This document shows positions 31,474-60,994 of a stretch of DNA of 64,000 nucleotides, one piece after another. Numbering within the stretch: the stretch's first letter is position 1; each line of letters opens with the position of its first letter. The DNA is from Candidatus Latescibacterota bacterium (GTDB lineage Bacteria; Latescibacterota; UBA2968; UBA8231), in NCBI GenBank assembly GCA_965215195.1, contig CBDCDC010000002.1:2048001-2112000 (forward strand), in the 5' to 3' direction. Under the pieces are notes generated by a model. It was not told the origin of the DNA, searched no databases, and saw only the letters and a program-made list of their open reading frames with translations. The position numbers and the translations under genes are program-made.

Positions 31474-31585
31474 AGAAACCGTCGGGCTGCTTCGGCGTCC
31501 GGCGTTTTTCGCGGGCGAGACGCCCTCAATCCCAGCGGCTCGGAGTCAAGGCCGAGAGCGAAACCTTCGTTTTCAGATGGCTTCT
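31474..31585. mobile_element. MITE/REP-like element copy 2
   Basis: Reverse complement nearly identical to 40845-40949; imperfect TIR; begins in the TAG stop of the CRTAC1 gene. Confidence 0.75.
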
Positions 31586-33536
31586 AAAGCTCTCTTACCT
31601 CAATCAGTGAGTTGATTGCAATGGGGCCAGAGACAATCTGTTCCCTCCCCGAGGGCCAGCGCACGGCGATCTGATCGACCACTTCGGCATTGCCCAGCCC
31701 AAAGTAGAGTGGATAGAGACTTTGGGAAAGGTAGCCCGACTGTCCATCGTAGACTTTGGTATAAGTCTGGGTGCCAACTCGAACCTTCACCGTGGCACCC
31801 AGCCCGCTGCGGTTCGACGCTGTGCCGATTAGCTCAACCTTGAGAAAAGACAGGTTCTGCTTTTTAGCACTCAGATTGCTGATCAGCACAGTAGGCGCGG
31901 AATTAAAATCGTTGGTGACGATATCCAAGTCGCCGTCGTTGTCCAAGTCGAAGATCGCCGAAGAACGGCTTCCCAATGCGCCCCAAACCACAACAGCGCC
32001 GCTTCGGTCCTGACAGTGCTGGTGGTTGCGGTCTTTCCAAGCACAATCCAATTCGAACCAAGGCTGGGCCGTGCGTCCGCCGCGCCTGGGCTCTACACCC
32101 AAGATGAATTCGCTGTCCAAGAATTTTTCGCTCCGGTTGTTCAACAGAACAGAGTTGACCCCATAGCGGAAAGGGTAATTCATGCTGGAGGTTATAAAAA
32201 CGTCCTCGTACCCATCGGCGTTGAGATCGCCGACGCTGAATCCCCAAGGCCAGTAATTCTCAGCACCGATTTGGTCCGAAATTTCTTCAAAGTGCCCGTC
32301 GCCTCTGTTCAGGTAGAACGCATTGCCAAAGATGCTGTTGCCGCCGCTGCGCAGGAACTCTTCAGACCATTGCATGCGGGACTTGAGTTTTTCGCGCTCG
32401 ACTCCGATGTTTTCGCTCATGTCGGAATGCATGTCAGTGATATAGAGATCCATTTTGCCGTCGTTATTGTAATCGAAAACTTTGACTCCCATCGACCCCC
32501 AAGGGGTTTTGGGAAAAACCTCGCGGCTCTTGTCGACAAAATGTTTGCCCTCAACGTTTTCATAGTACTGGTCGTGTCCCTGCATATTCAAAACGTATAG
32601 ATCGGGCCAGCCGTCCTCGTTGACGTCGATGGGGCTGGCGGCACCCGACCAACTCCCGTCCTTCAAACCCACCTTTTCGCTGACGTCGGCAAAGCGATTA
32701 TCACCCTCGTTTTTGAAGAGGATGCTCGTTTCGGTGCGTTCGGGCTTGAGGTGCCCGCTGAAGCCGTCGTCGAATCCCGCATAGTACCTGTACGGGCTAT
32801 TTTTTTCGCTGCCGCTAGAACGGCTCGCCTTTTTAAGCTCGTCGGTAGTGTACTGGCCCACAACAGTGAGGAACATATCCAACAACCCATCGCCGTTATA
32901 GTCAAAGAAAACTGCGGCAGAGGGATGTCCTTTATAGTCGAGGCCGGAGTCTTTGGAAATGTTTTTGAATGTGCCGGTCCCGTCGTTTTCAAAGAGGACA
33001 TTGCCTTGGCGCAGGACGGTCACGTAGAGGTCTGGGTCGCCGTCGTTGTCGATATCGGCGAAAGAGGCCGATACCCCAATCGCTGCGGCCGCCACGCCCG
33101 CCCTCTGGGTGATGTTCTCAAATTTGCCACCTCCCAGATTCCTCCACAGTTCGTTGTCGCCAACTTGGGTGACAAAATAGATATCGTAGAGGCCATCCCC
33201 GTCCACATCGGCAATGGCTATCCCATTGCCGTGGTCGTAGTGATTCGGCCGGTAGTCCTTGCCCGAATCGGGAGTGATTCTGTTGCGGAAGCGGATAGCA
33301 CTGTCTTCGAGCTGGTCAGAAAAGGTAAAGTCGCAAAATACATCGAACTCGGTCGCGAGTTGAGCTTGTCTGCGACTTTCCAGCCATGGAGGATCGATGA
33401 TCTCTTGGGGAAAAGGCAACTGGAGTGGATCGGTTTGCCCGGTGGAAGTCGAAGGCTGGTCATCGCTATTGCAGGATGCGATAAGCAGCGAGCCGATGGT
33501 CGCGAGGATGGCTTGTGCCGTTGTTTGCCGTGTCAC
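31584..33536 (-). CDS. CRTAC1 family lipoprotein (FG-GAP repeats + ASPIC/UnbV)
   Basis: Lipobox IAS-C; repeated DxDxDGxxDLY blades; C-terminal GYLSQS..LYFGLG...VRWPSG. Confidence 0.92.
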   Translation of the reverse strand: MTRQTTAQAILATIGSLLIASCNSDDQPSTSTGQTDPLQLPFPQEIIDPPWLESRRQAQLATEFDVFCDFTFSDQLEDSAIRFRNRITPDSGKDYRPNHYDHGNGIAIADVDGDGLYDIYFVTQVGDNELWRNLGGGKFENITQRAGVAAAAIGVSASFADIDNDGDPDLYVTVLRQGNVLFENDGTGTFKNISKDSGLDYKGHPSAAVFFDYNGDGLLDMFLTVVGQYTTDELKKASRSSGSEKNSPYRYYAGFDDGFSGHLKPERTETSILFKNEGDNRFADVSEKVGLKDGSWSGAASPIDVNEDGWPDLYVLNMQGHDQYYENVEGKHFVDKSREVFPKTPWGSMGVKVFDYNNDGKMDLYITDMHSDMSENIGVEREKLKSRMQWSEEFLRSGGNSIFGNAFYLNRGDGHFEEISDQIGAENYWPWGFSVGDLNADGYEDVFITSSMNYPFRYGVNSVLLNNRSEKFLDSEFILGVEPRRGGRTAQPWFELDCAWKDRNHQHCQDRSGAVVVWGALGSRSSAIFDLDNDGDLDIVTNDFNSAPTVLISNLSAKKQNLSFLKVELIGTASNRSGLGATVKVRVGTQTYTKVYDGQSGYLSQSLYPLYFGLGNAEVVDQIAVRWPSGREQIVSGPIAINSLIEVREL

Positions 33537-33658
33537 AATCTGTGCCCCCTATCTAACTTTTTAATCCCATTTGAGATACACGACCAACCCGACCAAAAGA
33601 ATGCGCAGTCATTTTGAAGTCAAATAGACCGCCGGGCTCGCACTGCCCGGAGGTATCA

Positions 33659-36208
33659 TCACTCAGTCGCACTGCTCCCTTTGTGGAGAGCCTGCCGCAA
33701 GTTCTGTCGCAAGAGCACCAGCGGGCGCACTTCCCCGTAGCGGCCGACGTACTCGTCCACCACCTGCAGGCCGCCACTGTAATCGCCTTGAACCCCCATG
33801 AGGGAAGCCAGTCGGTAGTAAGCCTCCCACCTGCCGGGCTCGACCTCGATGATCTGGCGGTAGAACTCGGCGGACCATGCGGAGTCCCTGTACTTCTTTG
33901 TCAACTCATCCATCAAATCAATAAGATCGTCGTAGGTTGCGTCCCTACTAGTGCCGTAGGTATCTAACAGTTTTTGCACCGCACGCTCGGCGTATTCGAC
34001 GGCCAACGGGTGCTGGCCCATCTGCTGTAGGTACGTGGAGGCGCTGTAATACGCATGCCAGACGAAAGGGATGCGCTGGCTGGCCCACGCTAGAAGCTGG
34101 GCCAGTGCCTCATCCATGCCCTTTTGCCGATAGAAGTCAGCTAGCTGCATGACAGCGGCCTGGTAATTGAACAACAAGGGAGTGCTTCCGGGATCGCCGG
34201 TCATCTCCCGCCCAAGGAGGTTGCGCCATTGAAAGACGCGATACAAATTGCGTTCCATCTCCTGCTGGTCGAGTCCCGGCTCGCGCTCCCGGACTAGTCG
34301 GTACGCTAGGCCACTTAAAGACAGGTAGGGCGTTAGTCCGACTTGGTTTTCGACCGGCACTGCAACCGAAAAAAAAATGGGTCTTTTCCAGTCGTTCCAT
34401 TCGACAATTTTCAGCACCGCGATATCCTGAACGCGAAGCATGCGTTGCTCAAAGGGCACCACTTCAATTTTTAGGCCCGCCAGTTCAATAGTTGTAGGTC
34501 TAGGCCAGTGGCGCAGATCCAGATCAACCCGCTGGGTATCGGTCAGCACCGAATCGATATAAGTATCAGTGTAGCGAATGTCGATGGCGGGGAGACGCTG
34601 GCGCAACTGTTTGATGTACCAGCCGGTATTCAAAAGTCCCAGATGGACGACGCCCACATCCGGGCGAATGCCCTCCACTTCCTGCAGAAACCACAGCGGA
34701 AAGGTATCGTTATCCCCGTTAGTAAACAGGATGCTGTTGGGGGCACACGACTGCAGCAGATTGTACCCGTAATCGCGCCCCAGATAGTCTCCCGTCCGGT
34801 CTACTTGATTGTATAGCTTGACGCCCATCCCCACCGGTAGGAGAACGCCGGCCCCCGCTAGGGCCATCAGCCAGCCGTTGGAAAGGCACAAGCGCCGCCC
34901 CAAGGTTTCGACCAAGCCACTCCAACCCAAGCCCATCCACAAGGCAAAAGCATAGAACATACCAACAAAGACGTAGTGGCGTTCGCGCGGTTGTGGATCG
35001 GACATGTTCAGGTAGGCAGACAGTCCAAAGCCCATGGTCGTGAAGAGCACTAAGACGACCAGAAAGCGCTGCCAGTCCCTGCGGGCCTGCCACAGCAGAC
35101 CGCCCAGACCCAGCAGGTAGGGCAGAACCGAGACGGCTACTGACTGCCGGGAAGGATCGGTGGCCCGGCGGAATTCCACTGCGCTTTCCCCTAGAGGGAA
35201 TTGAAACTGTGCGAAAAAGTACTTCATCTGGAGGTGCCAAAACTGGTAGAGGCGCGAAGCCTTGGCCTCCAGCATGCCTACTAGCAGACTCTCCGTGCCG
35301 TATTGCTCGCGTCCAAGAAATTTGACAAGGGCAGCCCAAGTTTCTGGGTCGTTCTCATCGATGACCGGATTCAGTCCCGAGCGAATGTAGAGGGTCGCAT
35401 AGGTGGAATAACCTAGGCCGAAGAGCACCAGCGCGGCTATCAGCAGCCCGCACGAATGCCTGTCGCGGCAGTAGAGATAATAGAGGCCGGCAGTCAACGC
35501 CAAAATCAGCGCCATCCCGCCCGCCTTGCTCGGCCCCCATACCGCCATCGCGATCAGACCGCTTCCACCGAGGACCAGTAGCACCCCAATCAGTCGCCGC
35601 AGGCTCGAGTCGGCGCACCCAATCAGGATCAGGATCGCCGGAATAGTCAGTAGGCAGAGAAGATGGACCCCACCACTTAGACCGAACATATATGCGATGA
35701 ACAAAAGCCACCTGTAACTGTGCTTATCGAGCGGCCCGACCGACCAGCGCAGCACCAACCAGACGCTCAGACAAACAAAAAAAATGGAACAGGCATAAAC
35801 TTCGGCCTCAGTAGCGTTGAACCAGAATGTGTACGAACAAGCCAAAGACAGGGCGGCAACCACGCCCCCGGCTAAGGCCACCAGCCGCTGCCGCGGGTCC
35901 CGGCCGGTCTTGAGAGCGCCTTGGGCGAGGATAGCAGTGGTGGAGAAGACGCACCAGATGGCAGCGGCCGATACTAGGGGCGATATGAGCACCACGCGCT
36001 GCTCCGCCGAGCCGATGGGCAAAAGCGCGAAAAGCCGGCCCCACAGAATATAGAGAGGGGCTCCAGGAGGATGGGGTATGCCCAGAGTGTAGGCGCAGGC
36101 GATGAATTCGCTGCTGTCCCACAGAGAGATAGTGGGAGCCATGGTCTTCAGGTAGAGGCCCAAGGCAATAATGAAGACCCCCGCCCCGACTATATTTTGG
36201 TATCGCAT
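33659..36208 (-). CDS. DUF2723 / TMEM260-like GT-C membrane glycosyltransferase with C-terminal TPR-like helices
   Basis: WDSSEFIA...LGIPHPPGAPLY, FWFNATEAEVY, RERHY, FTNGDNDTFPLW..QEVEG.RPDV; many TM helices; start position uncertain. Confidence 0.9.
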   Translation of the reverse strand: MRYQNIVGAGVFIIALGLYLKTMAPTISLWDSSEFIACAYTLGIPHPPGAPLYILWGRLFALLPIGSAEQRVVLISPLVSAAAIWCVFSTTAILAQGALKTGRDPRQRLVALAGGVVAALSLACSYTFWFNATEAEVYACSIFFVCLSVWLVLRWSVGPLDKHSYRWLLFIAYMFGLSGGVHLLCLLTIPAILILIGCADSSLRRLIGVLLVLGGSGLIAMAVWGPSKAGGMALILALTAGLYYLYCRDRHSCGLLIAALVLFGLGYSTYATLYIRSGLNPVIDENDPETWAALVKFLGREQYGTESLLVGMLEAKASRLYQFWHLQMKYFFAQFQFPLGESAVEFRRATDPSRQSVAVSVLPYLLGLGGLLWQARRDWQRFLVVLVLFTTMGFGLSAYLNMSDPQPRERHYVFVGMFYAFALWMGLGWSGLVETLGRRLCLSNGWLMALAGAGVLLPVGMGVKLYNQVDRTGDYLGRDYGYNLLQSCAPNSILFTNGDNDTFPLWFLQEVEGIRPDVGVVHLGLLNTGWYIKQLRQRLPAIDIRYTDTYIDSVLTDTQRVDLDLRHWPRPTTIELAGLKIEVVPFEQRMLRVQDIAVLKIVEWNDWKRPIFFSVAVPVENQVGLTPYLSLSGLAYRLVREREPGLDQQEMERNLYRVFQWRNLLGREMTGDPGSTPLLFNYQAAVMQLADFYRQKGMDEALAQLLAWASQRIPFVWHAYYSASTYLQQMGQHPLAVEYAERAVQKLLDTYGTSRDATYDDLIDLMDELTKKYRDSAWSAEFYRQIIEVEPGRWEAYYRLASLMGVQGDYSGGLQVVDEYVGRYGEVRPLVLLRQNLRQALHKGSSATE

Positions 36209-36421
36209 GTCGGAGTTGAAGCTAACGGCGCGTGTGCTAGCCGATGCCAAAATTAACCGCAAAAGATAATGTTCCAAGTCATCCCTGTGAAATGATCGAC
36301 GATGAGGTAGAAGCCCAAAATCAGGCCCATAAAGAAGGGACGGGTTTAGTTGACAGACCGCTCAGATTATCAGAACATGTAGGCTCAACATGGACGGGAG
36401 GGAGACATAGGGGGCGTTGAC

Positions 36422-38368
36422 ATGCGAAAAACAATGAAGCCCCAATCGACAAGGCCGGCTGTGGTGGCGATCGCGGCGATCTGGATTGCGGCCATGGCGG
36501 AGACCGGCTGGGGAGAGGTGAGGCAGTGGAAGGTGGGAGAAGGCGGCGAATCCTGGGCTTCGCAGGAGCTGGCTTCGACAGCTCTCGACTTTTCCCAAGC
36601 GGGAACAATCAAGAGTTTGGGATTCGATCCCCACAACAACATCACCCAGCAGTTGAGCTGGGTCAGCGCCCGCCCGATAGGGTTTCTCGAAGAGCGTGCC
36701 CAAGCCCACGTCTGGGACAATACCACCTTGAGAGAGTCGCAACTAGTGATCGTAGATGGACGAGATACTACATCCACCGGGGATCGCTTCAAAGAATTTG
36801 GAGTTCAACAGAGCGGGAGGAGATTTGAGTTCGACCTAGGGACCCGGATTCCGATCAACAGAATCCTCTTTTTTCCACGTCCGTTTGGCGTCGACGATCA
36901 AGGACGACCTTATCGTGAGGATTTCATTCGCAGCTACAGTCTCTTCTCCAGCGACGGGCTGAGCTTTACCGAGGACAATAGACCGGATTACAGCCTCCTG
37001 CGGCAGGTGGAATTCACTCGTGAGGACACGGCCGAGGTCCTGTTCCCGCTACAGTTTATTCGCTTTATCCGCCTGCATATAAATTCTCCGAATCCATTTG
37101 AAGTCGCCGAATTTCAGCTTTTTGGGACTGGCTTCGCTCCCCAAGCCAGTTATGCCTCCAAAATTATTGACTTAGGGGAGGCGGCCAATTTCAGCCGGCT
37201 CGAATGGACGGTCGAGGGACTGCGTCAGGAGGGCACCAATCAGGTCGCAGTGGAAGACTCCGACACAGAAATCGCCATCCGGATGCGCACGGGGACGGAC
37301 GACAATCCCCGAGTTTTTTTTCGGCTGGTAGATCGCTTTACCCGGGAGCGAGAGGTAGTGACAGAGGACGAATACAACAAGTTAGGGCAAAACGAACAGG
37401 GCGGGTTTCAGGACGACCAAGTCAACTGGAGCCTCTGGTCATCGCCCTTTACCTCCTCCGGGCAGAGGATCACCCTGCCCAGTCCGCGTCGCTACTTTCA
37501 GTTCGAGATAGCCATGAAGAGTCAGGCCATTTTAGACGGCATACAGGTCACTTCTCTGAGCGTGGAGCACTCTATTCCGCCGCTGGCCCAGCAATTAATC
37601 GGAGAGGTCTCTGTGCTGGACGAGCCCCGTCCTCCGCGCAGTGTGGCCGTCGTGCCGGTCGGCCAGTTCGTCACCTTTGCCTACGATCTCATCGCCGATG
37701 TTGCGGGAACGGACATCGGCTTTGATGGCATCCGGATATTCACCCCCTCGTCGCAGCCAAAATTTGCGGAACTCTTCACAGGAGATCCTCCTGAAAAGGT
37801 AGAACCCGCCGAGATTATAGAGGAACTCGGCAGCCTGACCGTGCTCTTCCCCCCTTCCCAGCGGATAAACGGCCGAGACGTCCTGCAGATCATTTTTGCG
37901 GCCGAGGTGTTTGTCCAAGGGAGCTTCTTGAACGCCGAGGTCTTCGATACCCAAAGCGAAGAGGTCCCTCAGAGAGTTTTGTCGGGCGATGCCAACCCCG
38001 ACGTGACGACCAATACGCTGCGGGTGCTGACTACAGCCGAGTCCGCTAGGGAGATCCTATCCTCTTTCGCGGTCACTCCGAGGGTGTTCTCGCCCAATGG
38101 GGATGCGATCAACGAAGAGGCTTTGATCGCGCTCACCCTTTCACAACTGGTAGAACCAGTGGAGGTGGAGGTGGCAATTTTCGATCTGGCAGGTCGGAGA
38201 GTGCGGACCTTGGCTGGGGAGGAGCAAAGCGGGAATCACCTAAGGCCATGGGATGGACGGGACGATAACGAGGCACTACTTCCCGTCGGTATTTATCTGG
38301 TCAAGGTTTCGGTTCACGCCGACCAAGACAGCTTCGTGCGAGCGGAGACTGTGGGAATAGTGTACTGA
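36422..38368 (+). CDS. Secreted protein with C-terminal FlgD-Ig-like domain, paralog 1
   Basis: Signal peptide; discoidin-like segment; WSLWSSP, SPRRYFQF; VFSPNGD..NE, WDGRD...GIYLVKV, ends IVY. Confidence 0.8.
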   Translation: MRKTMKPQSTRPAVVAIAAIWIAAMAETGWGEVRQWKVGEGGESWASQELASTALDFSQAGTIKSLGFDPHNNITQQLSWVSARPIGFLEERAQAHVWDNTTLRESQLVIVDGRDTTSTGDRFKEFGVQQSGRRFEFDLGTRIPINRILFFPRPFGVDDQGRPYREDFIRSYSLFSSDGLSFTEDNRPDYSLLRQVEFTREDTAEVLFPLQFIRFIRLHINSPNPFEVAEFQLFGTGFAPQASYASKIIDLGEAANFSRLEWTVEGLRQEGTNQVAVEDSDTEIAIRMRTGTDDNPRVFFRLVDRFTREREVVTEDEYNKLGQNEQGGFQDDQVNWSLWSSPFTSSGQRITLPSPRRYFQFEIAMKSQAILDGIQVTSLSVEHSIPPLAQQLIGEVSVLDEPRPPRSVAVVPVGQFVTFAYDLIADVAGTDIGFDGIRIFTPSSQPKFAELFTGDPPEKVEPAEIIEELGSLTVLFPPSQRINGRDVLQIIFAAEVFVQGSFLNAEVFDTQSEEVPQRVLSGDANPDVTTNTLRVLTTAESAREILSSFAVTPRVFSPNGDAINEEALIALTLSQLVEPVEVEVAIFDLAGRRVRTLAGEEQSGNHLRPWDGRDDNEALLPVGIYLVKVSVHADQDSFVRAETVGIVY

Positions 38369-38384
38369 GGAAAGGACTGTTCCA

Positions 38385-40694: not shown

Positions 40695-40844
40695 TATGAC
40701 AAGATGTGTTTCCTGAAGGTTGGTTCAAATACATCTCCACGAAATCACGACATAATGGACTGAAGCCACGGCCGGAAAGTTCCAAGGACTCAATCCATTG
40801 ATCTCAAGCCCTTTGGGTTTGGCCATTTCGGGCGAGAAGTTCTC

Positions 40845-46582: not shown

Positions 46583-46594
46583 GAGGGAAGCGCG

Positions 46595-48253
46595 TTGGCA
46601 CTAGTGGCGTTTTTCCTGTGGCTATTCGGCTGCAGTACCCCAGCGGACGACAATGTGGTAGCCCGGGTCGACACAGTGGAGATTACGGTCGAAGACCTGC
46701 TTAGGTTCAATATGGATATGCCCGCTCTGCTCCGCTCTGAGGAGCAGGGCGTCCAGATGTGGCGCGAACACCTCGGCAGCATGGTTGATATGGAGCTGAT
46801 GTTACTCGAGGCCCGGAAGCAGGGCATCGACCAGGATTCGGAGTTTGTGGGTAAATGGGAGCACGAGCGGCGGCAAAAACTGATCGGGGAGATCCTCCGC
46901 CGGGAAGTCAAAGAGAAGAGCGCTCTTTCGTCAGAGGAGTTGCAACGTCGCTTCGAGCAGTCCAAGTGGAACCGCATGCTGAAACTAGCCCGCATCCAAG
47001 TAGAGACCGCGGAGGACGCCCGGAAAGTAGTGGAAGCGCTCGAGCGGGGAAAAGGGTTCGGGGAAGTGGCCAAACTTCGTTCTACCGATCGCGAGACCGC
47101 CTCCCAAGGTGGCCTGCTTGGTCCTCTCTACGGGCGTGGCAACGTAGAAGAGCAGGGGATGCCGGTGGCGGTTGCAGAGGAAGTTTTTGCGCTAGCGGTA
47201 GGCAAGATCAGCCGGCCCTTCGAGATTGGGGACGGGTACGAGATCTTTGAGGTCGTGGCCGAGAGTCCTCCCCCCGCGAGTTACAGCTTGATTTACGCCC
47301 AAGTCCAGATTACCAAAGCCGTTTGGGCCCGCCGCAAAGAGCTGATGGAGGAGTTGGCCACCCAATTCGGAGTGGAGCTGGACCAAGAAGGCATCGCTTT
47401 TCTGCTGGCAAGGGCTCCGAGCGCTGACGCGGATACGCTGGCTCTAGCAGAGCCGGACCAAAGGGTGGTTCTGTGTCATTTCGCTGGCGGACAGTTGACC
47501 TTGAAAGATTTCGCCGACACCTACCAGAGGGTCCGCCGCTTCCGAGCGGTCAGATTTGATAGCAGCGGCATCGCCGAGTTCATCCATCGGGAGCTCTTGC
47601 CGATCCAACTCCTGTCCAAAGCAGCCCTGAAGCAGGGAATTGATCAGGACTCGTCGGTAGTCGCTTGGCTGGAGGCCAAGAAGAAGACTATGCTGATCGA
47701 AACCTTAAAAGAGTGGGAAGTGGATCGGCGGATCGACTTGGGCGACGAAGCGGTGCGCTCCTACTACGAAAACCATCTACATCTTTTTAAGAAGCCCGAA
47801 CAGATCACCATACAGGAGATTCTGTGTACCACCCGGGAGGAGGCCGAGGAGGTCTTGAAACGGATTCTGAACGGGGAAGAAATGGAGAATCTAGCCGCGC
47901 ACTACAGTATCAGGAGTGGGGTCGAGAGAACCAAAGGTTTAATTCATATGCACACCTATGGAAAAACCAATTACGGCGTCCTCTACGACGAGGCGATGAA
48001 GGCGGAGATGGGCGAGCTAAAAGGTCCCGTCCAGCTTGAGGAAGGCTATACACTATTCAAGGTGGTGGAGAAGATCGGCTTGAAGCCCGATCCCTTTGAG
48101 AAGGCATCGTCGAGAGCGCGATATTGGCTGAAGAAGGAAAAGGAAGAGGAGCTAATCACCGCCCTACTTCACAGCCTGAAGGAGAAGTACGCCTCAAAGA
48201 TCGTCCTATTTGAGGACCGCTTGAAGAAGATGGATGCAGAAGCCGCTATCTAA
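46595..48253 (+). CDS. PpiC/parvulin-type peptidyl-prolyl isomerase lipoprotein (two rotamase domains, SurA/PrsA-like)
   Basis: Lipobox LFG-C; VVARVD..EIT; GKGFGEVAKLRSTD..TASQGGLLG; second domain LAAHYS...GELKGPV. Confidence 0.85.
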   Translation: MALVAFFLWLFGCSTPADDNVVARVDTVEITVEDLLRFNMDMPALLRSEEQGVQMWREHLGSMVDMELMLLEARKQGIDQDSEFVGKWEHERRQKLIGEILRREVKEKSALSSEELQRRFEQSKWNRMLKLARIQVETAEDARKVVEALERGKGFGEVAKLRSTDRETASQGGLLGPLYGRGNVEEQGMPVAVAEEVFALAVGKISRPFEIGDGYEIFEVVAESPPPASYSLIYAQVQITKAVWARRKELMEELATQFGVELDQEGIAFLLARAPSADADTLALAEPDQRVVLCHFAGGQLTLKDFADTYQRVRRFRAVRFDSSGIAEFIHRELLPIQLLSKAALKQGIDQDSSVVAWLEAKKKTMLIETLKEWEVDRRIDLGDEAVRSYYENHLHLFKKPEQITIQEILCTTREEAEEVLKRILNGEEMENLAAHYSIRSGVERTKGLIHMHTYGKTNYGVLYDEAMKAEMGELKGPVQLEEGYTLFKVVEKIGLKPDPFEKASSRARYWLKKEKEEELITALLHSLKEKYASKIVLFEDRLKKMDAEAAI

Positions 48254-49592
48254 AGCCTGGTACTTCGCTCTTTTTGCTGTCCTCACCGCCAGCGGCTGTG
48301 GCGACCAGAGCTCACAGGAGCGGGCCGAAGCCGCATACGCCGAGGCCAAGCGTCTGGCCGAGACTGGCCGCTATCTCAAAGCCATCGCAGCTTGCCAGCA
48401 AGCCCTAGCAGTGGATCAGCAGCATCTCGAGGCACTCCTGCTTGCCGGTTCCATCCTCCAGAAGCAGGGCGATTTTGAGCTGGCTATTCGGCACATTGCC
48501 CAAGCCGTGCAACTCTATCCGGACCATGTCGAGGCCCGTATTGCGCTGGGCGATCTGTACATGCGAAAGCGCCACAACGACCTTTCTGCCTCGGCCTACG
48601 AGGAGGCGATTTCGCTGGCTCCCGACCGCATTTCTCCCTATCGCAAGCTCGCCATAGTCCTCAGCAATCAGGGCCGCTATGACGATGCGGTTGCAGCCTT
48701 GCTCAAGGCACTTCAGCTCGAACCGGAGAATGCCGCCACCCACTACAATCTGGGAGCAGTCTACGAGCAATTGGCCCACGCCGATTCGGCGATTGCGGCG
48801 TACGAGCAGACAGTGGCCCTCGATTCCTCTTATGTCGATGCACACTATCACCTCGGACAGATCTATACCAAGTTAGGGCACCTTGAAGAGGCCGAGGCGA
48901 GCTGCAGAGCCGTTCTCCGCCACGATCCGGGATACGCCAATGCTTATACCTTGCTGGGACAGGTGTTCCTCCAGCAAGGGCGGACCGCCGAAGCGGAAAC
49001 TGCCTTTAAGAAAGCTCTTGCCGCCGACCCCTTTGAAAAAGAAGCCTATCACCGGCTTGGGACGCTCTACCTCAGACAGGCAAGAACTGAGGAGGGCCAA
49101 AAGCTGCTGGCCGCTTTCCAGCGCCTGCGAAAAGCGAGCGATGATATCAACCGCTACCGATATATCCTGACGCTCTACCCGGAAGACGCAGATGCCCGCT
49201 ACAATCTCGGGGTGCTCTATGCCGGCCTAGGCCATTTCCCGGTGGCGGCGGCCGAGTACCAACAAACTCTGGCCATCAATCCCGCTGACCTGAGTGCCCG
49301 CAACAACCTAGCCAATATCTTTCTCCGGCAAGGGAAAATAGCCGCGGCGATCGGCCAATACGAGAAGATCCTAGAGCTCAATTCCCGCTATGTCCAAGCC
49401 TATTACAACCTCGGAAACGCCTACATGGCCCTGGGCGATGTGCAGCGGGCGACCCGGGCTTTCCACAAAACCATCAAAATAGAGCCCAATCACGCCGATG
49501 CGCACTACAGCTTGGGCATGATCTACCTCGGGCAAGACCGGAAGGCAGAAGGCGAGGCGGAACTGGAGATATACCGGCGTCTGACAGAGTAA
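48234..49592 (+). CDS. Tetratricopeptide repeat lipoprotein
   Basis: Lipobox ASG-C; about 11 TPRs (AHYNLG...A...Y..AL..xP). Confidence 0.92.
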   Translation: MQKPLSKAWYFALFAVLTASGCGDQSSQERAEAAYAEAKRLAETGRYLKAIAACQQALAVDQQHLEALLLAGSILQKQGDFELAIRHIAQAVQLYPDHVEARIALGDLYMRKRHNDLSASAYEEAISLAPDRISPYRKLAIVLSNQGRYDDAVAALLKALQLEPENAATHYNLGAVYEQLAHADSAIAAYEQTVALDSSYVDAHYHLGQIYTKLGHLEEAEASCRAVLRHDPGYANAYTLLGQVFLQQGRTAEAETAFKKALAADPFEKEAYHRLGTLYLRQARTEEGQKLLAAFQRLRKASDDINRYRYILTLYPEDADARYNLGVLYAGLGHFPVAAAEYQQTLAINPADLSARNNLANIFLRQGKIAAAIGQYEKILELNSRYVQAYYNLGNAYMALGDVQRATRAFHKTIKIEPNHADAHYSLGMIYLGQDRKAEGEAELEIYRRLTE

Positions 49593-49832
49593 TGCCACCG
49601 ACCTCTAAAGAAGTCGGCTTTACCCTCTCCCGCTCTTCCGCCGCGACTCGGTATTCAGCGAGCGAGAGGAGTATACGAGACGCATTACCACCGTACTGGC
49701 TGCTTGGCTTGGAAACCGTCGCCGTTTCCAAACGCCTCCTCGGTATCCGGCCGCAGCACCGTCAGGCGTGTAGATACCTACCAGAACGCGAACGCCAGCA
49801 GGACCAGAGGCAACAAGGTTGCGTGGACCCGG

Positions 49833-49937
49833 CCCGGAGTCGGTTGAACGCTCTGGGGTCTGAAGGTTGGGTGCTCAACCTAAAAAGGAAATACGAGCAA
49901 GTATTCACCCCGTCAACCTTTTTCAACCGACTCCGGG
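49833..49937. repeat. 105-bp element bounded by a perfect 16-bp inverted repeat
   Basis: CCCGGAGTCGGTTGAA (49833) / TTCAACCGACTCCGGG (49922); inner hairpin AGGTTG...CAACCT. Confidence 0.75.
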
Positions 49938-50068
49938 ACGGACCCCGCCGGGTGCGTTGCCCGCCCGTCGTCCGTTGAATCCTTATCCCTCTGACGTTTC
50001 AAAACGTCAGTATCCCAGGAGGTTTTTATGATATCAGAAGGTGCTAAAAATAAGCTCACGGGTTTTTT

Positions 50069-51748
50069 ATGGCGATAATGAAGTATGTGTTTTGTCTCGC
50101 AGCAGCGGTTGTTCTCCACCTGCCGGCAAAGGCCGAGGTCCAGTTCGCCGATGTCACTGCTGAGGCTGGGATTGCCTTTCGCCACCAGAATGGGGCGACA
50201 GGGGAAAAGCATCTCCCGGAGACGCAGGGTTCGGGAGTGGCTTTCTTTGATTACGACGCCGATGGCTGGCTCGACCTATACTTTGTCAACATCGCCGGGC
50301 CGGGGGGCCTTTACCGCAATCGAGGCGACGGGCACTTTGAGGAGATCGCGGCCACTGCCGGGGTGGCCGAATCGGGCCACGGGATGGGCTGTGCCGCGGC
50401 AGACTACGACCAGGACGGCGATCTCGACCTCTACATCACTTGCTACGGGCCCAATATCCTCTACCGCAACAATGGCGATGGGCGCTTTACCGATGTGACA
50501 AGCCGCTCGGGGGTGGGCCATCCGGGTTGGAGTGCAGGAGCGGCTTTTGCAGACTACGACCAAGACGGCGATCCCGACCTCTATGTGGCCAATTACGTGG
50601 AGTACCCGCCGGAGGTAAACCCGCCCTGCATTCAAGCCAAAGGGCTACAGGTCTACTGCGGACCCGAGGCCTTCGACCCACAGGCGGATGTCTTCTTCCG
50701 CAACGAGGGGGACCAAACCTTCGCAGACGTTAGCGATGCAGTCGGCTTGCTGCCCCGGGCGGCCAAGGAACTAGGAGCTTTTTTCAGCGACTACGACCAA
50801 GACGGCGACCTAGATCTTTACGCGGCCGGCGATCGCACGCCCAATCTGCTCTACCGCAATGACGGGGACCGCTTCGCCGAAGTCGGTGTCCTCGCCGGGG
50901 TTGCTTTTAACGACGCCGGCGAGGCACTAGCCGGAATGGGGGTCGATTCGGGAGACTACGACAACGATGGGCTCTTCGACTTCTTCGTGACCAACTATCA
51001 GTGGGAGACCAACAATCTCTACCGCAACTTAGGGAACGGGTTTTTCGCCGATACCACCTTCGAGTCGGGATTGGGCATGCCGAGCCTGAGATTCTTGGCT
51101 TGGGGAACGGTCTTCTTCGACTACGACAACGACGGCGATGGCGACCTCTTCGTGGCCAACGGTCACTTAGATGACAATGTGGAGCTATTCGACACTAGCG
51201 TGACCTATGCCCAGCAGAACCAACTTTTCAGGAACGACGGTCGGGGTAGATTCGCCGATGTGACTAATTCGGCGGGATCGGGCTTGGCGCTGGTGCAGGT
51301 GAGCCGCGGGGCAGCGGTCGGGGATTACGATGAAGATGGAGATCTGGATCTGGTCGTCTCCAATAATAACCAGCCGGCTGCGCTCCTACGCAACGACGGG
51401 GGGAACCAGAATCGCTGGCTGGCTATCAAACTTGTCGGGAATTATGCTCCTGCCTCCTCTGGTCCTTCACAGGGTCAGCTTCGGGGACCCTCCAGCAACC
51501 GGGACGGCATTGGGGCCTTGGTCAAAGTCGTGGCAGGTGGTCGCTTGCAGATCGACGAAGTCAGGAGTGGGTCGAGTTTTCTGTGTCAGGATGATCTGCG
51601 TCTCTATTTTGGTCTTGGTGCGGCAAAAAAAGCAGAGCTGGTGGAGGTGCGCTGGCCTAGCGGTATCGTCGAACAGCTCACGGACGTGGCGGCCAACCAA
51701 GTACTCACTCTGTACGAACCGGATACATCCGTGAAACCTAGGCCTTAA
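50069..51748 (+). CDS. CRTAC1 family protein (FG-GAP + ASPIC/UnbV)
   Basis: Signal peptide; FADVTAEAGI, repeated DYDxDGDxDL, SRGAAVGDYD, LYFGLG...VRWPSG. Confidence 0.93.
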   Translation: MAIMKYVFCLAAAVVLHLPAKAEVQFADVTAEAGIAFRHQNGATGEKHLPETQGSGVAFFDYDADGWLDLYFVNIAGPGGLYRNRGDGHFEEIAATAGVAESGHGMGCAAADYDQDGDLDLYITCYGPNILYRNNGDGRFTDVTSRSGVGHPGWSAGAAFADYDQDGDPDLYVANYVEYPPEVNPPCIQAKGLQVYCGPEAFDPQADVFFRNEGDQTFADVSDAVGLLPRAAKELGAFFSDYDQDGDLDLYAAGDRTPNLLYRNDGDRFAEVGVLAGVAFNDAGEALAGMGVDSGDYDNDGLFDFFVTNYQWETNNLYRNLGNGFFADTTFESGLGMPSLRFLAWGTVFFDYDNDGDGDLFVANGHLDDNVELFDTSVTYAQQNQLFRNDGRGRFADVTNSAGSGLALVQVSRGAAVGDYDEDGDLDLVVSNNNQPAALLRNDGGNQNRWLAIKLVGNYAPASSGPSQGQLRGPSSNRDGIGALVKVVAGGRLQIDEVRSGSSFLCQDDLRLYFGLGAAKKAELVEVRWPSGIVEQLTDVAANQVLTLYEPDTSVKPRP

Positions 51749-51760
51749 AAGCAGGAGTAG

Positions 51761-53125
51761 ATGGGCATGGTCCGGGTTTTGTCGATTGCGGTAGCCATTG
51801 CCGTGCTTGTTAGCTGCGGAGATAATGATGCCGGCCCGGTATCATCCATTAGAACCGCTGACTGCTCTGAAGTAGAGATACATTGGGAAGGGGACTTTTC
51901 GCTTGCCACTCCAGAAGATCTAAAGGCCCTAGCAGGCGATGGCAACAGTTGCTTTACTATTAGCGGCAAACTGATCATTGAGCGAACGACCCTGACCGGC
52001 TTGGAGGGCTTGCGCAACCTCTACAGTGTCGGCGGTTTGCGACTGCGCTCCAATCTAGCCCTGACCAGCCTAGAGGGCTTGCACGAGCTCACTCGCATCG
52101 AAGGGGATCTGGAAATCGTCAACAATCGAACGTTGACCAATGTGGATGGCTTGCACAAGCTCACCCGCATTGGGGGCAAGCTGGAAATTAGAGACAATGC
52201 GTCCCTGACCAGCCTGGAGGGCCTGCACAACCTCACCCGCATCGATGGAGACTTGGGGATCTTCGGCAATGAGCCTCTGGACTATGAGGAAAGAACGCGA
52301 AGACATGCTCACAGCCTAGGCGACGAGCAAGCAGCGCGCGAGTCCGCGGGAAGCATCTTCAGCGACGGTGAGGCCCTGTCCAACCTAGAGGGTCTGCACA
52401 ACCTGCAAAGCATTGGGGGATCGCTCAAGCTCGGCCTCCCTATTGTCGGCTATAACTTTGGTCTAACTACTCTGGAGGGCCTGCGCAGCCTGCAAAGCAT
52501 TGAGGGCGATCTGCACATCCAGCACAATTTTGCTCTGACCAGCCTCGAAGGTCTGCACAACGTGCAAAGCGTCGGCGGCGAACTGCATATCCTGCACAAC
52601 GACCTTCTGACCACTCTAAAGGGCTTGGACAACTTGCGAAGCATCGGAGACAACCTAAGTCTCTACCGCAATGTCTCTCTGACCAGCCTGAAAGGTTTGC
52701 ACAACGTGCAAAGCGTTGGAGATGAATTGATAATTCGCGACAATAGACTGCTGGCCAGCCTAGAGGGCCTGCGCAGCCTCCAGAGCGTCGGCCGGGCTCT
52801 GATGATCTGGGGCAGCGATGCCTTAAAGGACCTAAAGGGCTTGGACAAGCTCACTCGGATCGAGAATCTCCTGATCCACGAAAATAATTCTCTAGCCTGT
52901 CTCAAAGGTTTGGACAACCTGCAAAGCGTCGGAAATGTCCTACAGATAGACGGCAATAGGTCTTTGGCCAGCCTCGACGGTTTGGGCAACCTGCAAAGCG
53001 TCGGGGAACGCCTGTGGATTGAGGACAACCCCAACCTGCCAAGCGATCTGGTTCAAGAATTTGCCGCCAGAATGATTGAAGGTGGCTTTGGGGGCGAGAT
53101 TACTATTATGGGCAATCAGCCATAG
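51761..53125 (+). CDS. Receptor-L-domain/leucine-rich repeat lipoprotein
   Basis: Lipobox LVS-C; about 12 repeats of ~24 aa NxxLTSLEGLxNLxSIGGxLxI. Confidence 0.88.
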   Translation: MGMVRVLSIAVAIAVLVSCGDNDAGPVSSIRTADCSEVEIHWEGDFSLATPEDLKALAGDGNSCFTISGKLIIERTTLTGLEGLRNLYSVGGLRLRSNLALTSLEGLHELTRIEGDLEIVNNRTLTNVDGLHKLTRIGGKLEIRDNASLTSLEGLHNLTRIDGDLGIFGNEPLDYEERTRRHAHSLGDEQAARESAGSIFSDGEALSNLEGLHNLQSIGGSLKLGLPIVGYNFGLTTLEGLRSLQSIEGDLHIQHNFALTSLEGLHNVQSVGGELHILHNDLLTTLKGLDNLRSIGDNLSLYRNVSLTSLKGLHNVQSVGDELIIRDNRLLASLEGLRSLQSVGRALMIWGSDALKDLKGLDKLTRIENLLIHENNSLACLKGLDNLQSVGNVLQIDGNRSLASLDGLGNLQSVGERLWIEDNPNLPSDLVQEFAARMIEGGFGGEITIMGNQP

Positions 53126-53289
53126 TGGAAGCCCGCTGCCAGATGCACCTCTCGTCCTGTATTCTAGGTCGCCAGCGATGATGCGGCGGAAATAGGCACC
53201 GGCATTGCGCAGGGAAACTATTATACAGGAGGCTTCATGCGACAAGTAAAATTTGGGTAGTATCCCTACCGAGCGCGTAAAGGGCGATA

Positions 53290-53350
53290 ACTAAAAAAAT
53301 CTTGACTTCTTTAAACATTATTATTTAACTAGCCCTCAATGATTTATAAT
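53290..53350 (+). promoter_or_regulatory. AT-rich putative sigma70 promoter region
   Basis: TTGACT at 53302 and TATAAT at 53345 in a very AT-rich tract; box pairing ambiguous. Confidence 0.35.
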
Positions 53351-53460
53351 GAAGGAGGTAAAGCTCCCTCGCGTAGCGTCCAGTTTTCCATTCCTTCCTA
53401 ATCCCTGAATTGTACTCATAAATGTGCAACTGGGAGACCCTCTATTAGGGGAGATCTAAA

Positions 53461-54417
53461 ATGAAAAAATCTATTCTTTTGCTTTTGCCGTGTGCTTTGG
53501 CTCTGGCTCTTAGCGGGCCAGCTTTGGCACACACGGGCTTAGAGTTTTTTCTCCAAGAAGTGCCCGATCCTGACGCCATGACCATGGACGGCGATGACAG
53601 CGACTGGGGCTGGTTCGACAACGATCTCGCCTTGGACAGCAATTTGGATTTTTATGTGACATCAGGCGAAGTTGCTAACCCAGAGGATTATTCTGCCACT
53701 TGGCGGATAGCCTATTCTCGTCCACCCGACAACCGGCTCTACTTCTTTCTCCGGATTCAGGACGACTCCTTACGGCGGCAGGAGCCAGACTTGAAACGCA
53801 TGTGGCACGATGATTTCACCCAGTTCAACCTCGACAACGACCACTCGGGCGGTCCCGGCTTGGGGGCCAACTTGGACGAGGCGAGCAACCACCAGCGCTA
53901 TCATCTGCGCATATTGCCGGGTCCAGATGGAGTAGCGGCCTTCAACAGCCAGATCGAGGTGCTCGGCGACGAGAACTTGAGCTGGAATCAGGATGTAGAC
54001 CTTTTTGGCAACGCCACGGACGTATGGGATCTTGCCTGGACGGTTACCCCGCCGGATGCCCAGCACGGCACTCTGGATATAGAAGTCACTTGGGAAGCCC
54101 GGCTCAAAACCTACGATGCCGTTGGCCTGAGCGAGGCGGAGAGCGTACGGCACGTGTATGAGGCTGGTCAGGTCACCCACCTTGGGCCGCGGCTCACCGA
54201 TAACGACGGCAGCCTATTTCAGTACGATTTTTATCTGCAGGATAGATTTACCGGTGTTCAAAACCCGGCCCAATATGGCACAGAGGGGGATCAGTTTCCC
54301 GACTGGTTTTTGATAGGATGCGAAGACTGCCCCAATGCCGGAGGATCAGGAGCAACCGCAGTGGAGAGTTCCTCTTGGGGCCGGATCAAAAGTCATCTGA
54401 GCAATCAGTTGCGCTGA
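53461..54417 (+). CDS. Secreted CBM9/DOMON-like protein with AVESSSWGRIK tail, copy 1
   Basis: Signal peptide ending ALA; MTMDGDDSDW motif; C-terminal ATAVESSSWGRIKS. Confidence 0.7.
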   Translation: MKKSILLLLPCALALALSGPALAHTGLEFFLQEVPDPDAMTMDGDDSDWGWFDNDLALDSNLDFYVTSGEVANPEDYSATWRIAYSRPPDNRLYFFLRIQDDSLRRQEPDLKRMWHDDFTQFNLDNDHSGGPGLGANLDEASNHQRYHLRILPGPDGVAAFNSQIEVLGDENLSWNQDVDLFGNATDVWDLAWTVTPPDAQHGTLDIEVTWEARLKTYDAVGLSEAESVRHVYEAGQVTHLGPRLTDNDGSLFQYDFYLQDRFTGVQNPAQYGTEGDQFPDWFLIGCEDCPNAGGSGATAVESSSWGRIKSHLSNQLR

Positions 54418-54525
54418 GTACTTTTTATGCTAATTTTTTCAGTAAACCCACCTTGGGCGATCCGACCCAAGCCCATGTCGGCACATAGGTGCAGACTGGG
54501 AAACCATCCAATAGGAGAGGAGAAC

Positions 54526-55482
54526 ATGAAAAGATTCACAATTTTGCCTTTGGCATGCGCGTTAGCTCTAACTTTTAGCGGGCCGGCTTTGGCACACACG
54601 GGCCTAGAGTTTTTCCTGCAAGAAGTGCCCGATCCTGACGCCATGACCATGGACGGCGATGACAGCGACTGGGGCTGGTTCGACAACGATCTCGCCTTGG
54701 ACAGCGCTTTGGATTTTCACGAGAGAAATGACAACGCCCTCGAGCCAGACGATTATGCTGCTACTCTCCGGCTGGCCTATTCTCGTTCGCCAGACAACCG
54801 GCTCTACTTCTTTTTCCGGATTCAGGACGATTCCCTGCGGCGGCAGGAGCCAGACTTGAAACGCATGTGGCACGATGATTTCACCCAGTTCAACCTCGAC
54901 AACGACCACTCGGGCGGTCCCGGCTTGGGGGCCAACTTGGACGAGGCGAGCAACCACCAGCGCTACCATATGCGCATATTGCCGGGTCCAGATGGAGTAG
55001 CGGCCTTCAACAGCCAGATCGAGGTGCTCGGCGACGAGAACTTGAGCTGGAATCAGGATGTAGATCTTTTTGGCAACGCCACGGACGTATGGGATCTCGC
55101 CTGGACGGTTACCCCGTCGGATGCCCAGCACGGCACTTTGGATATAGAAGTCACTTGGGAAGCCCGGCTCAAAACCTATGACGCCGTTGGCCTAAGCGAG
55201 GCGGAGAGCGTAAGGCACGTGTATGAGGCTGGTCAGGTCACCCACATTGGGCCGCGGCTCGTCGATAGCGACGGCAGCTTGTATCAGCACGATATGTGGC
55301 TGAAGGATAGATTTACCGGAGCTGAAAACCCGCTCACATATGACACACAGGGGGATGGGTTTCCCGACTGGATTTTGCTGGAATGCGAAAACTGCCCCAA
55401 TGCCGGAGGATCAGGAGCAACCGCGGTGGAGAGTTCCTCTTGGGGCCGGATCAAAAGTCATCTGAGCAATCAGTTGCGCTGA
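54526..55482 (+). CDS. Secreted CBM9/DOMON-like protein with AVESSSWGRIK tail, copy 2 (tandem duplicate)
   Basis: Same 957-nt length, offset 1065 bp, long identical blocks; GAGGAG RBS before ATG 54526. Confidence 0.72.
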   Translation: MKRFTILPLACALALTFSGPALAHTGLEFFLQEVPDPDAMTMDGDDSDWGWFDNDLALDSALDFHERNDNALEPDDYAATLRLAYSRSPDNRLYFFFRIQDDSLRRQEPDLKRMWHDDFTQFNLDNDHSGGPGLGANLDEASNHQRYHMRILPGPDGVAAFNSQIEVLGDENLSWNQDVDLFGNATDVWDLAWTVTPSDAQHGTLDIEVTWEARLKTYDAVGLSEAESVRHVYEAGQVTHIGPRLVDSDGSLYQHDMWLKDRFTGAENPLTYDTQGDGFPDWILLECENCPNAGGSGATAVESSSWGRIKSHLSNQLR

Positions 55483-60993: not shown

Positions 60994-60994
60994 A

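Follow-up and report, generated by a model that had tools for sequence, protein, structure and literature searches.

We analysed a 64,000-nucleotide stretch of a Candidatus Latescibacterota bacterium genome (contig CBDCDC010000002.1, positions 2,048,001 to 2,112,000), hereafter the window. Window positions 36422-55482 hold a multi-gene cassette that recurs in many related genomes and is organized around an 881-residue protein modelled as a large outer-membrane beta-barrel. The cassette fits no described system and probably builds a new kind of cell-surface machine. Our best, tentative explanation is that it encodes a stable cell-envelope complex, not a pore with interchangeable cargo. As to function, we tentatively favour, at rather less than an even chance, one stable surface complex for glycan capture and passage, which would make the cassette a functional analogue of the Sus-like systems of Bacteroidota. 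Latescibacterota, a phylum that has received little study, are widespread, uncultured polymer degraders.

The original prediction had described a divergent locus of about 24 kb (31584-55482) in which every gene encodes an exported or membrane protein. All the genes it listed are present at those positions in the map of open reading frames (ORFs) and in Pfam and NCBIfam scans, and each translation shows a signal peptide, a lipobox or multiple membrane spans. Its gene content otherwise stands, but the conserved unit is smaller on the left and one of its members is absent from the window copy.

Recurrence was measured from the barrel gene. In a scan that used one genome per species, 397 barrel copies were confirmed by tblastn and the best 80 were analysed. 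A further 317 copies lie outside these 80 loci, so that copy counts per assembly are lower bounds. The 80 loci come from 40 assemblies; by their titles, 63 are from Latescibacterota, 15 from Gemmatimonadota, one from Handelsmaniibacteriota and one is unplaced. Many of them are mutually orthologous, and the counts given here are not counts of independent events. One of them, L001, is orthologous to the window locus, with 95% protein identity in the barrel; its sequence record, OZ247580.1, carries 5 cassette copies. The window proteins were compared with the 80 loci by tblastn and blastp, and gene linkage was read in the full-flank set of 46 loci with at least 8 kb on either side of the barrel gene. 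In this set, the cassette families are strongly linked, as the original prediction expected. Members of a family of three paralogs, named A, B and C below, are found in 45/46 loci, an unnamed lipoprotein in 43/46 and a PpiC-type chaperone lipoprotein in 41/46. A tetratricopeptide repeat (TPR) lipoprotein and a protein with a conserved C-terminal tail (tail protein) are each present in 37/46, and an FG-GAP/ASPIC protein in 30/46. All three paralog genes occur in 34/46; paralogs, lipoprotein, PpiC and tail protein occur jointly in 36/46. Gene order differs between clades while content persists. The left-arm GT-C glycosyltransferase, which had been proposed as part of the system, is not conserved with the cassette (1/46 at a coverage of at least 50%). 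The Receptor-L gene is also found in 1/46 and, among all 80 loci, outside the window in L001 only. The left arm (GT-C and FG-GAP genes) and the Receptor-L gene are thus not core. The conserved core consists of the barrel, the lipoprotein, A, B and C, the tail protein and the SurA-like PpiC lipoprotein.

The core families also appear to have evolved together. For pairs of loci with a barrel distance above 0.15, the pairwise distances within each family were set against those of the barrel. The correlations, all of which are inflated by common ancestry, are r=0.93 for A, 0.93 for B, 0.94 for C, 0.92 for the tail protein, 0.84 for the lipoprotein, 0.80 for PpiC, 0.70 for TPR and 0.50 for FG-GAP. 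This ranking suggests that A, B, C, the tail protein, the lipoprotein and PpiC duplicated jointly with the barrel, and that TPR and FG-GAP proteins are looser companions. Relative to the barrel, the lipoprotein diverges about as slowly (ratio 1.06) and the paralogs faster (1.24-1.33). At least two of the 80 loci were found in 22 of the 40 assemblies, with a maximum of five, both figures being lower bounds. In a FastTree of 77 barrels, copies of one chromosome fall in different deep clades, each of which spans many genomes, and barrel identity between clades is 40-68%. The copies are therefore old paralogous lineages, not recent duplications.

The barrel gene is located at 41018-43663 (+ strand). 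The protein carries a signal peptide and belongs to an unnamed family. It matches 0 Pfam and 0 NCBIfam families, with no Pfam match even at E<=10; there is no meaningful PDB sequence match and the Atlas gives unnamed clusters only. An Atlas lead to DUF6029 (score 0.89) was confirmed by no alignment tool. Relatives are numerous: of 8000 candidates scored, 682 reach E<=1e-3. Identity is 48-95% for the 120 that are listed, and all those with a name are annotated as 'hypothetical', Candidatus Latescibacteria being the main source. When 1.84 billion representatives were searched with a profile, 972 clusters were obtained at E<=1e-3 and 702 at 1e-10. Ten distant clusters were inspected and all are 'hypothetical'; most are labelled Latescibacterota or Gemmatimonadota, and one Ignavibacteria/Bacteroidota.

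An AlphaFold2 (AF2) model of the barrel, built on a 35-sequence alignment, is of medium confidence (pLDDT 65, pTM 0.62). Between residues 138 and 877, it contains 23 long antiparallel strands, each 8-17 residues in length. The strand connections alternate between short turns of 2-5 residues and longer loops. From this regular alternation, we infer that one more strand in the unmodelled N-terminal part would bring the total to 24, and that both large insertions would be located on the long-loop, normally external, side. The first insertion, after the sixth modelled strand, is a beta-sandwich (residues 244-400). The second is an acidic stretch (477-605) with three EF-hand-like loops, VDDNDDQDRFPD, LDENNDFVSDFNQ and MDMNNNTLIDRFED, and with invariant D/N columns at 508-599 in the 35-sequence alignment. 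The likeness to EF-hands is at motif level only, and homology with dockerin or thrombospondin repeats was set aside because no Pfam match was found at E<=10. In a Foldseek search of the PDB, the top matches are all large outer-membrane barrels, namely MtrB (6.2e-9), SlpA and LptD (5iv9_A, 1.9e-6). FimD/PapC ushers (E 3e-5 to 7e-4), Occ porins and SusC-type transporters follow, and TM-scores are 0.14-0.25 throughout. The 881-residue protein thus models as a large outer-membrane beta-barrel of about 24 strands, which establishes its fold class but not its family. The original prediction had opposed a putative barrel to a soluble enzyme without one; AF2 and Foldseek both point to the large barrel.

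Paralog A (648 residues, 36422-38368, +) opens the cassette. Paralog B (769 residues) follows at 38385-40694 (+) and paralog C (704 residues) is encoded after the barrel, at 43660-45774 (+). The start of C is possibly at 43699, and its L001 orthologue begins with MRGAFF. The three proteins do share a C-terminal Ig-like domain, as originally described, but their likeness is not confined to it and runs over the whole length, with 27-34% identity. In a midpoint-rooted tree of 170 family members, the groups around A, B and C contain 50, 56 and 49 proteins and 15 are unassigned; support is 0.97 for A and 0.82 for C, and the B node has none. Exactly one A, one B and one C are found in 38 of the 68 loci that have any paralog. 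A fixed A+B+C trio that co-diverges with the barrel fits the subunits of one complex better than cargo.

The AF2 model of paralog A is confident (pLDDT 88.7) and all-beta. Foldseek and PDB profile searches found no enzyme or catalytic fold in it, only lectin-type and Ig-type sandwiches. The head is of the discoidin/CBM32 type, with likenesses to the galactose oxidase N-domain and to the carbohydrate-binding modules of sialidase and NagH. It is followed by Ig/Fn3-type domains. The C-terminal domain (CTD) is closest, by PDB profile, to the Ig-like domain of FlgD (3osv_A, E 5.6e-9), with the PorU CTD at 0.024. Paralog A carries a signal peptide. Paralog B matches F5_F8_type_C at 1.7e-8 and also ends with a CHU_C/FlgD_ig domain. 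The last residues are VGIVY in A, ISVVY in B and VGVAY in C. Across the family, the C-terminus reads [VI]-x-V-[AV]-Y, and 163 of 167 proteins end in Tyr. Similar FlgD_ig tails on three unrelated proteins, the M4 peptidase P0447, the phosphatase-like P0445 and one protein without assigned function, end in R or K. The Tyr end is therefore specific to the A/B/C family.

A WSxWS motif is also shared by A, B and C, with both Trp residues invariant (W336 and W339 in A, residues 336-342, window 37427-37447). The motif resembles that of cytokine-receptor Fn3 domains, and the genes adjoin one for a TMEM260-like GT-C. Glycosylation of the A/B/C Ig-like proteins by this enzyme is an idea only.

The CTDs bring in type IX secretion systems (T9SS). 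In Flavobacterium, SprB is a type-B CTD cargo with an adjacent PorP/SprF-like outer-membrane partner. The cassette likewise has CHU_C-like CTDs on large beta-rich proteins encoded beside a barrel gene, and its host likewise belongs to the Fibrobacterota-Chlorobiota-Bacteroidota (FCB) superphylum. A, B and C could then be type-B substrates of a T9SS encoded elsewhere, which the barrel would receive and anchor as PorP/SprF does. The T9SS-like resemblance noted in the original prediction is borne out, CHU_C being matched by 29/32 A-type members at E<=1e-3 (best 5e-10) and FlgD_ig by 30/32. CHU_C is also listed for 27/36 matches of the CTD search, PorU CTDs are matched weakly, and P0447 and P0445 show that related FlgD_ig C-terminal domains occur on other proteins. 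According to the introduction of PMC11285876, T9SS may occur in several non-Bacteroidota FCB phyla. The phylum list given there does not include Latescibacterota, and no paper in the literature searched mentions both type IX secretion and Latescibacter. The window proteins themselves remain near or below thresholds. They score 24.1, 27.1 (B) and 23.9 bits on CHU_C (PF13585), with a cut-off of 27. They fall short of the type-B model TIGR04131 (15.8 and 14.3 bits, cut-off 35) and of the type-A model TIGR04183, Por_Secre_tail (18.7 and 14.6 bits, cut-off 23; none for C). Moreover, the CTD is closer to FlgD than to PorU, and the VxVAY end is unlike the K or R with which the three other CTD carriers inspected terminate. 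The barrel, with 881 residues, is unrelated to PorP/SprF, and three fixed paralogs per barrel and an invariant Tyr end are further differences. No PorP/SprF match to Pfam or NCBIfam was found among the 14 locus proteins, nor for the barrel at E<=10. The original prediction saw no porK/L/M/N or sprA gene in the window; Pfam indeed detects none of these among the 51 window ORFs, and neither porV, porU nor PorP/SprF. We consider that A, B and C are unlikely to be T9SS cargo with a cognate anchor.

The tail proteins close the cassette. Tail protein 1 (318 residues, 53461-54417, +) carries a signal peptide, gives a weak CBM9-like match and ends with a TAVExxSWGRIK tail. Tail protein 2 (54526-55482, +; listed ORF from 54427) is 86% identical to it and, as the original prediction reported for this pair of WGRIK-tailed proteins, both end ...SSSWGRIKSHLSNQLR. 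The family has about 300 residues, a signal peptide and a weak, sub-threshold CBM9 match. W-[GAS]-x-[IVLM]-K lies in the last 22 residues of 54/56 members of at least 280 residues, usually preceded by TAVE. Such C-terminal ends are found in 63 of 3821 locus ORFs, nine of them outside the BLAST-defined tail family. Two solo barrels, with no other cassette gene in their flanks, have about 1 kb away one of these nine, a 199-residue secreted protein that is unrelated to the CBM9-like family and ends with SAVE..RWGQIKRG (L051 6970-7569(-) and L052 3416-4015(-)). The tail thus seems to track the barrel even where the other cassette genes are absent, and we propose that WGxIK may be a barrel-directed tag.

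An oddity of evolutionary rate was seen in the window tail proteins. Among their 74 database matches, 48 are at least 92% identical and lie on large contigs. The genomes with these near-identical proteins have a best barrel match to that of the window of only 57-69%, and cassette-internal tail genes elsewhere are 36-44% identical to those of the window. Slow evolution or recent spread could be the cause. The mature proteins start with His, but a histidine-brace role of the lytic polysaccharide monooxygenase type was rejected since this His is not conserved across the family.

The lipoprotein (255 residues, 45815-46582, +; listed ORF from 45659) probably starts at 45815, which gives MRTF...LLGGC, and the 53 homologues listed all have the lipobox. 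Its alignment has 46% mean column identity, and it is the slowest-diverging partner of the barrel. Its family is unnamed: there is no Pfam match at E<=10 and no PDB match, the Atlas gives unnamed clusters only, and an Atlas lead to DUF4352 (score 0.79) was confirmed by no alignment tool. Complex prediction of barrel residues 138-881 with lipoprotein residues 20-255, with the N-terminal 115 residues omitted, gave scores of 0.17, 0.40 and 0.03 for a mark of 0.32, a result that neither supports nor opposes binding. The chaperone gene follows at 46595-48253 (+). Its product has a lipobox (LFGC) and matches Rotamase (7.7e-22) and Rotamase_2 (9.5e-20), each over two stretches (135-220 and 384-505). 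The SurA_N_3 match is weak (0.0043, below the cut-off), and NCBIfam peptidylprolyl isomerase models remain below their equivalog cut-offs. With its two Rotamase domains, the protein classifies as a parvulin of the SurA/PrsA type.

A very large barrel encoded with a small lipoprotein and a two-parvulin chaperone recalls LptD/LptE and the neighbouring surA gene of the E. coli lptD-surA locus. In contrast with that system, the cassette is multi-copy and accompanied by lectin-like proteins. No OstA/LptD or LptE match was found, and the structural similarity is that of barrels in general.

Another parallel is with chaperone-usher systems (FimD/PapC with FimC/PapD), and it gives a rather unlikely but substantial alternative. 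In a private secretion pathway of this kind, the barrel would be a translocon that receives A, B, C and the tail protein from the private periplasmic chaperone, threads them to the surface and retains them there as an adhesive or protective layer; its purpose would be export rather than uptake. The layout of the barrel resembles that of an usher: it has about 880 residues and about 24 strands, its beta-sandwich insertion comes after the sixth modelled strand, and there is an additional N-terminal region of about 115 residues, and FimD/PapC are among its Foldseek matches (E 3e-5). Both systems have a dedicated periplasmic chaperone (here in 41/46 loci), several operons per genome, as fimbrial operons do, and no cytoplasmic ATPase. 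Both also have Ig-fold C-terminal modules with a conserved last strand, near-invariant here and with Tyr in 163/167. Yet no sequence relation to ushers, their chaperones or pilins was detected, the Usher, PapC and PapD families giving no Pfam or NCBIfam match among the locus proteins. The chaperone is a SurA/PrsA-type peptidyl-prolyl isomerase, and the fold-level likeness is weak, with Foldseek TM-scores of 0.19-0.25 (0.19-0.22 for FimD/PapC) and with MtrB, SlpA and LptD ranking higher. Furthermore, the subunits are multi-domain lectin-like proteins of 650-770 residues in a 1:1:1 gene dosage. A fixed A+B+C set without a repeated 'major subunit' argues against a polymer. An embedded inner-membrane protein and sugar-uptake neighbours, described below, are unexpected for an usher-like system.

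The inner-membrane protein was exposed by clustering 956 non-overlapping locus ORFs. It has about 640 residues, at least 10 hydrophobic spans and Pfam domains DUF6785 and DUF6784 (E 1e-114 to 1e-124), and is encoded in 25/80 loci belonging to at least six barrel clades. In 7 loci, only 4 bp separate its start from the end of the barrel gene; in 7 loci, it precedes paralog C by 27-151 bp. It is 28 bp after paralog B in L080 and overlaps the end of the lipoprotein gene in L074. No NCBIfam or PDB match was found, and the searched literature does not mention it. In L001, the gene is located between GT-C and paralog A. By blastn, a segment of about 2.2 kb of L001 (3463-5685) corresponds to 95 bp in the window (36316-36410). 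A remnant of the gene, its 36-codon 3' end, is still present at 36256-36345(-); by tblastn, it is 78% identical to the L001 protein over residues 577-612. The window cassette has thus lost the DUF6785/6784 gene and the spacer upstream of paralog A by a deletion of about 2.2 kb. The window copy may be functionally impaired or differently regulated as a result.

Next to this scar is the TMEM260-like/DUF2723 GT-C membrane glycosyltransferase gene (33659-36277, probable start 36208, - strand; Pfam E 3.8e-50), whose product has a C-terminal TPR region. An hhalign comparison found no relation between it and DUF6785/6784 (probability 0.1). GT-C adjoins the cassette in the window and in L001, and weaker GT-C-like ORFs lie by the DUF6785 gene in L020 and L022. 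The TPR lipoprotein gene (48234-49592, +; Pfam TPR families) follows that of the chaperone. These members suggest another reading, exopolysaccharide export, for which AlgK/AlgE, PelB/C, BcsC and PgaA are models. The TPR lipoprotein and the barrel would be AlgK/AlgE-like, DUF6785/6784 (with GT-C) would make or flip a polymer, and A, B and C would handle the polysaccharide in the periplasm or at the surface. The frequency of the TPR lipoprotein (37/46), a polytopic membrane protein inside the operon, lectin-like domains and the adjacent GT-C genes are in line with it, as are ManC and PMI genes near the solo barrels L053 and L054. However, no synthase/GT2, Wzx/Wzy or Wza/Wzc was found among the 14 locus proteins or the 36 neighbour representatives, and the recurrent neighbours of full cassettes include no GT2 synthase, Wza/Wzc, c-di-GMP receptor or sugar-nucleotide enzymes. 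Five or more separate exopolysaccharide exporters per genome would be unusual. In addition, the TPR protein is among the least tightly coupled members, and the adjacent ABC systems that depend on a substrate-binding protein (SBP) are importers. Taken together, polymer export appears highly improbable.

Beyond DUF6785/6784 itself, 36 other ORF clusters occur in at least three loci, and representatives of all 36 were annotated. They are mainly parts of SBP-dependent ABC importers (SBP_bac_1, Peripla_BP_1, BPD_transp_1/2, ABC_tran) and sugar-type catabolic proteins (GFO/IDH/MocA, MR_MLE, DHDPS, BNR_2, xylose-isomerase-like TIM barrel, PhyH). ABC importer parts are present in 18/80 loci, GFO/IDH/MocA in 17, MR_MLE in 8, DHDPS in 6, BNR_2 in 5 and the xylose-isomerase-like TIM barrel in 5. 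Any ABC, GFO, MR_MLE, DHDPS or BNR_2 neighbour is found in 39/80 loci, and any of these or DUF6785/6784 in 53/80. One position in clade III is of particular interest. The divergent slot just upstream of the tail gene is filled by DUF6785/6784 in L018, L020 and L022, and by an SBP with two permeases in L019, L021, L024, L025 and L029. Two further clades have an ABC importer operon after the cassette, encoded on its strand. This exchange in one slot, together with the importer operons after cassettes, hints that the cassette feeds an importer.

These neighbours bring the cassette close to the Sus-like systems (SusC/SusD) of Bacteroidota polysaccharide utilization loci (PULs). Like them, it exists in many diverged copies per genome, combines a large barrel with a partner lipoprotein and non-enzymatic proteins of the glycan-binding type, and is sited by sugar transport and catabolism genes. 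The parts are different. SusC has Plug, TonB_dep_Rec and CarboxypepD_reg domains, whereas the cassette barrel has none of them (0 Pfam families), and the lipoprotein is not SusD_RagB (no Pfam match at E<=10). The same Pfam scan recovered Plug and CarbopepD_reg_2 in ORF 1146-4049 of the window and SusD_RagB in ORF 4282-5697. The binding proteins of the cassette are not lipoproteins but have a signal peptide and an Ig-like CTD. The cassette also differs by its own parvulin chaperone and its DUF6785/6784 inner-membrane protein. By analogy, the cassette may work most like a Sus-type module or like an anchoring pair of the usher or SprF type, made from unrelated parts.

The original prediction had proposed a dedicated secretion or surface-layer assembly module. 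Co-occurrence, the barrel and the T9SS-like CTDs agree with that proposal. Its secretion step does not fare as well: the fixed trio, the deep multi-copy diversity, the inner-membrane partner, the sugar-type neighbours and the unconserved left arm point away from a secretion module. The usher-like and T9SS-cargo alternatives differ from the glycan-capture complex mainly in the purpose of the finished structure. The assembly step is common ground, since A, B and C must be exported and retained on any reading.

Several points weigh against glycan capture and passage. The barrel model is of medium confidence, and the most conserved parts of the protein, residues 23-137 (aromatic-rich) and 508-590, are those that the model cannot place. 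In the scans, the barrel shows neither a TonB box nor a Plug domain, nor anything else recognisable that could gate or energise it, and known passive sugar channels are far smaller than a pore of about 24 strands. No PDB, NCBIfam or literature match assigns a function or a direction of transport to DUF6785/6784. The ABC count of 18/80 comes from loci that are often orthologous and may barely exceed chance; as a rough estimate, a fifth of random 20-kb windows of a saccharolytic genome could hold such a gene. No glycoside hydrolase or lyase occurs among the 37 recurrent neighbour clusters. Finally, the CTDs resemble secretion signals, and a chaperone of its own per cassette is typical of export or assembly pathways, not of uptake loci.

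With these reservations, glycan capture by a stable surface complex could work as follows. After Sec export, the private chaperone would keep the barrel and/or the beta-sandwich proteins assembly-competent. The barrel and the lipoprotein would form the outer-membrane core, on which A, B and C would dock via their FlgD-Ig/CHU_C-like C-terminal domains (V-x-V-A-Y end) and the tail protein via its WGxIK tail. The docking site would probably be provided by the Ca2+-loop and beta-sandwich insertions of the barrel. The discoidin/CBM-like heads would bind carbohydrate-type substrates, which would pass through the barrel to DUF6785/6784 or to an adjacent ABC importer. The cassette would then be a Latescibacterota counterpart of Sus-like uptake modules in function, not in descent, diversified into substrate-specific copies in each genome.

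A broader reading is possible, if doubtful. The cassette may be a self-sufficient, undescribed trans-envelope machine of Latescibacterota and close FCB relatives, copied for different substrates. The barrel would act as translocon and as docking platform, and would have two new C-terminal address tags, its own SurA-like chaperone and DUF6785/6784 as a new inner-membrane partner. Such a machine would parallel the chaperone-usher, T9SS and Sus systems without homology to them, and would combine the three in one modular cassette. A literature search that covered full text, with supplementary tables outside its reach, returned no description of this gene set, of T9SS in Latescibacterota or of DUF6785. 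The matched passages of PMC11285876 and PMC4454575 do not mention the cassette.

Three further genes belong to the locus. On the left, an FG-GAP_3 + UnbV_ASPIC lipoprotein (lipobox LIASC) is encoded at 31584-33536(-). On the right, a CRTAC1-like FG-GAP/UnbV_ASPIC secreted protein (50069-51748, +) precedes a Recep_L_domain (Receptor-L/LRR-like) lipoprotein (51761-53125, +), a local accessory; all three were identified by Pfam. The spacer between the TPR and FG-GAP genes (49593-50068) measures 476 bp in the window and 41 bp in L001. ORF 49592-49978 (128 residues) sits in this spacer and has no homologue, even in the 95%-identical L001, so that it is probably not a gene. Inverted-repeat-like stretches are visible by eye in the spacer, which contains no Rfam family and no conserved ORF. 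Consensus scans showed no excess of promoters (11, compared with 7.5±2.8 in shuffles) or terminators (16, compared with 18.5±4.3), and Rfam and tRNA scans of the window gave no match.

About 5 kb downstream, positions 60640-63998 look like a decayed or rearranged second cassette. This remnant comprises a C-terminal ASPIC fragment (60640-61029(-)), a truncated barrel and a PpiC gene (62565-63998) that runs off the window. The second barrel paralog (60929-62596, +) aligns to residues 396-879 of the 881-residue protein with 33% identity, and lacks the signal peptide and the first 395 residues or so.

Elsewhere in the window, genes of sugar-acid catabolism (279-24168) surround a true SusC/SusD pair (1146-5697); the organism therefore has classical Sus-like systems besides the new cassette. 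The catabolic genes encode UxuA-like, ILVD/EDD dehydratase and MR_MLE proteins, three HpcH/HpaI aldolases, an aldo/keto reductase and a 2-hydroxyacid dehydrogenase. Seven ORFs spread over the window have PhyH-type dioxygenase domains by Pfam. A pair of neighbouring dynamin-like/MMR_HSR1 GTPase genes (744 and 573 residues, 18263-22215) are located in the sole low-GC stretch (0.49-0.51, compared with about 0.6) and may be an acquired island. Also present are a Fic-domain protein (11314-12507), a toxin-antitoxin-like pair of HTH_66/MerR-like and PIN_10 genes (28118-29217) and an AbiEi-like antitoxin fragment (59118-59756).

The cassette is among the most repeated multi-gene units found around this locus, and four of its core families are without Pfam, NCBIfam or PDB annotation: the barrel, the lipoprotein, the tail protein (apart from the weak CBM9 match) and DUF6785/6784, a Pfam domain of unknown function. 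Should the cassette serve uptake, the PUL logic of one barrel plus surface lectins per substrate would have been invented twice, from unrelated parts and without TonB coupling. If it is instead a private secretion or anchoring system, it would represent a new outer-membrane export route with two candidate sorting signals. With such signals, surface proteomes could be predicted for several candidate phyla. Both readings give testable targets in the barrel, its Ca2+ loops, the terminal Tyr and the WGxIK tail.

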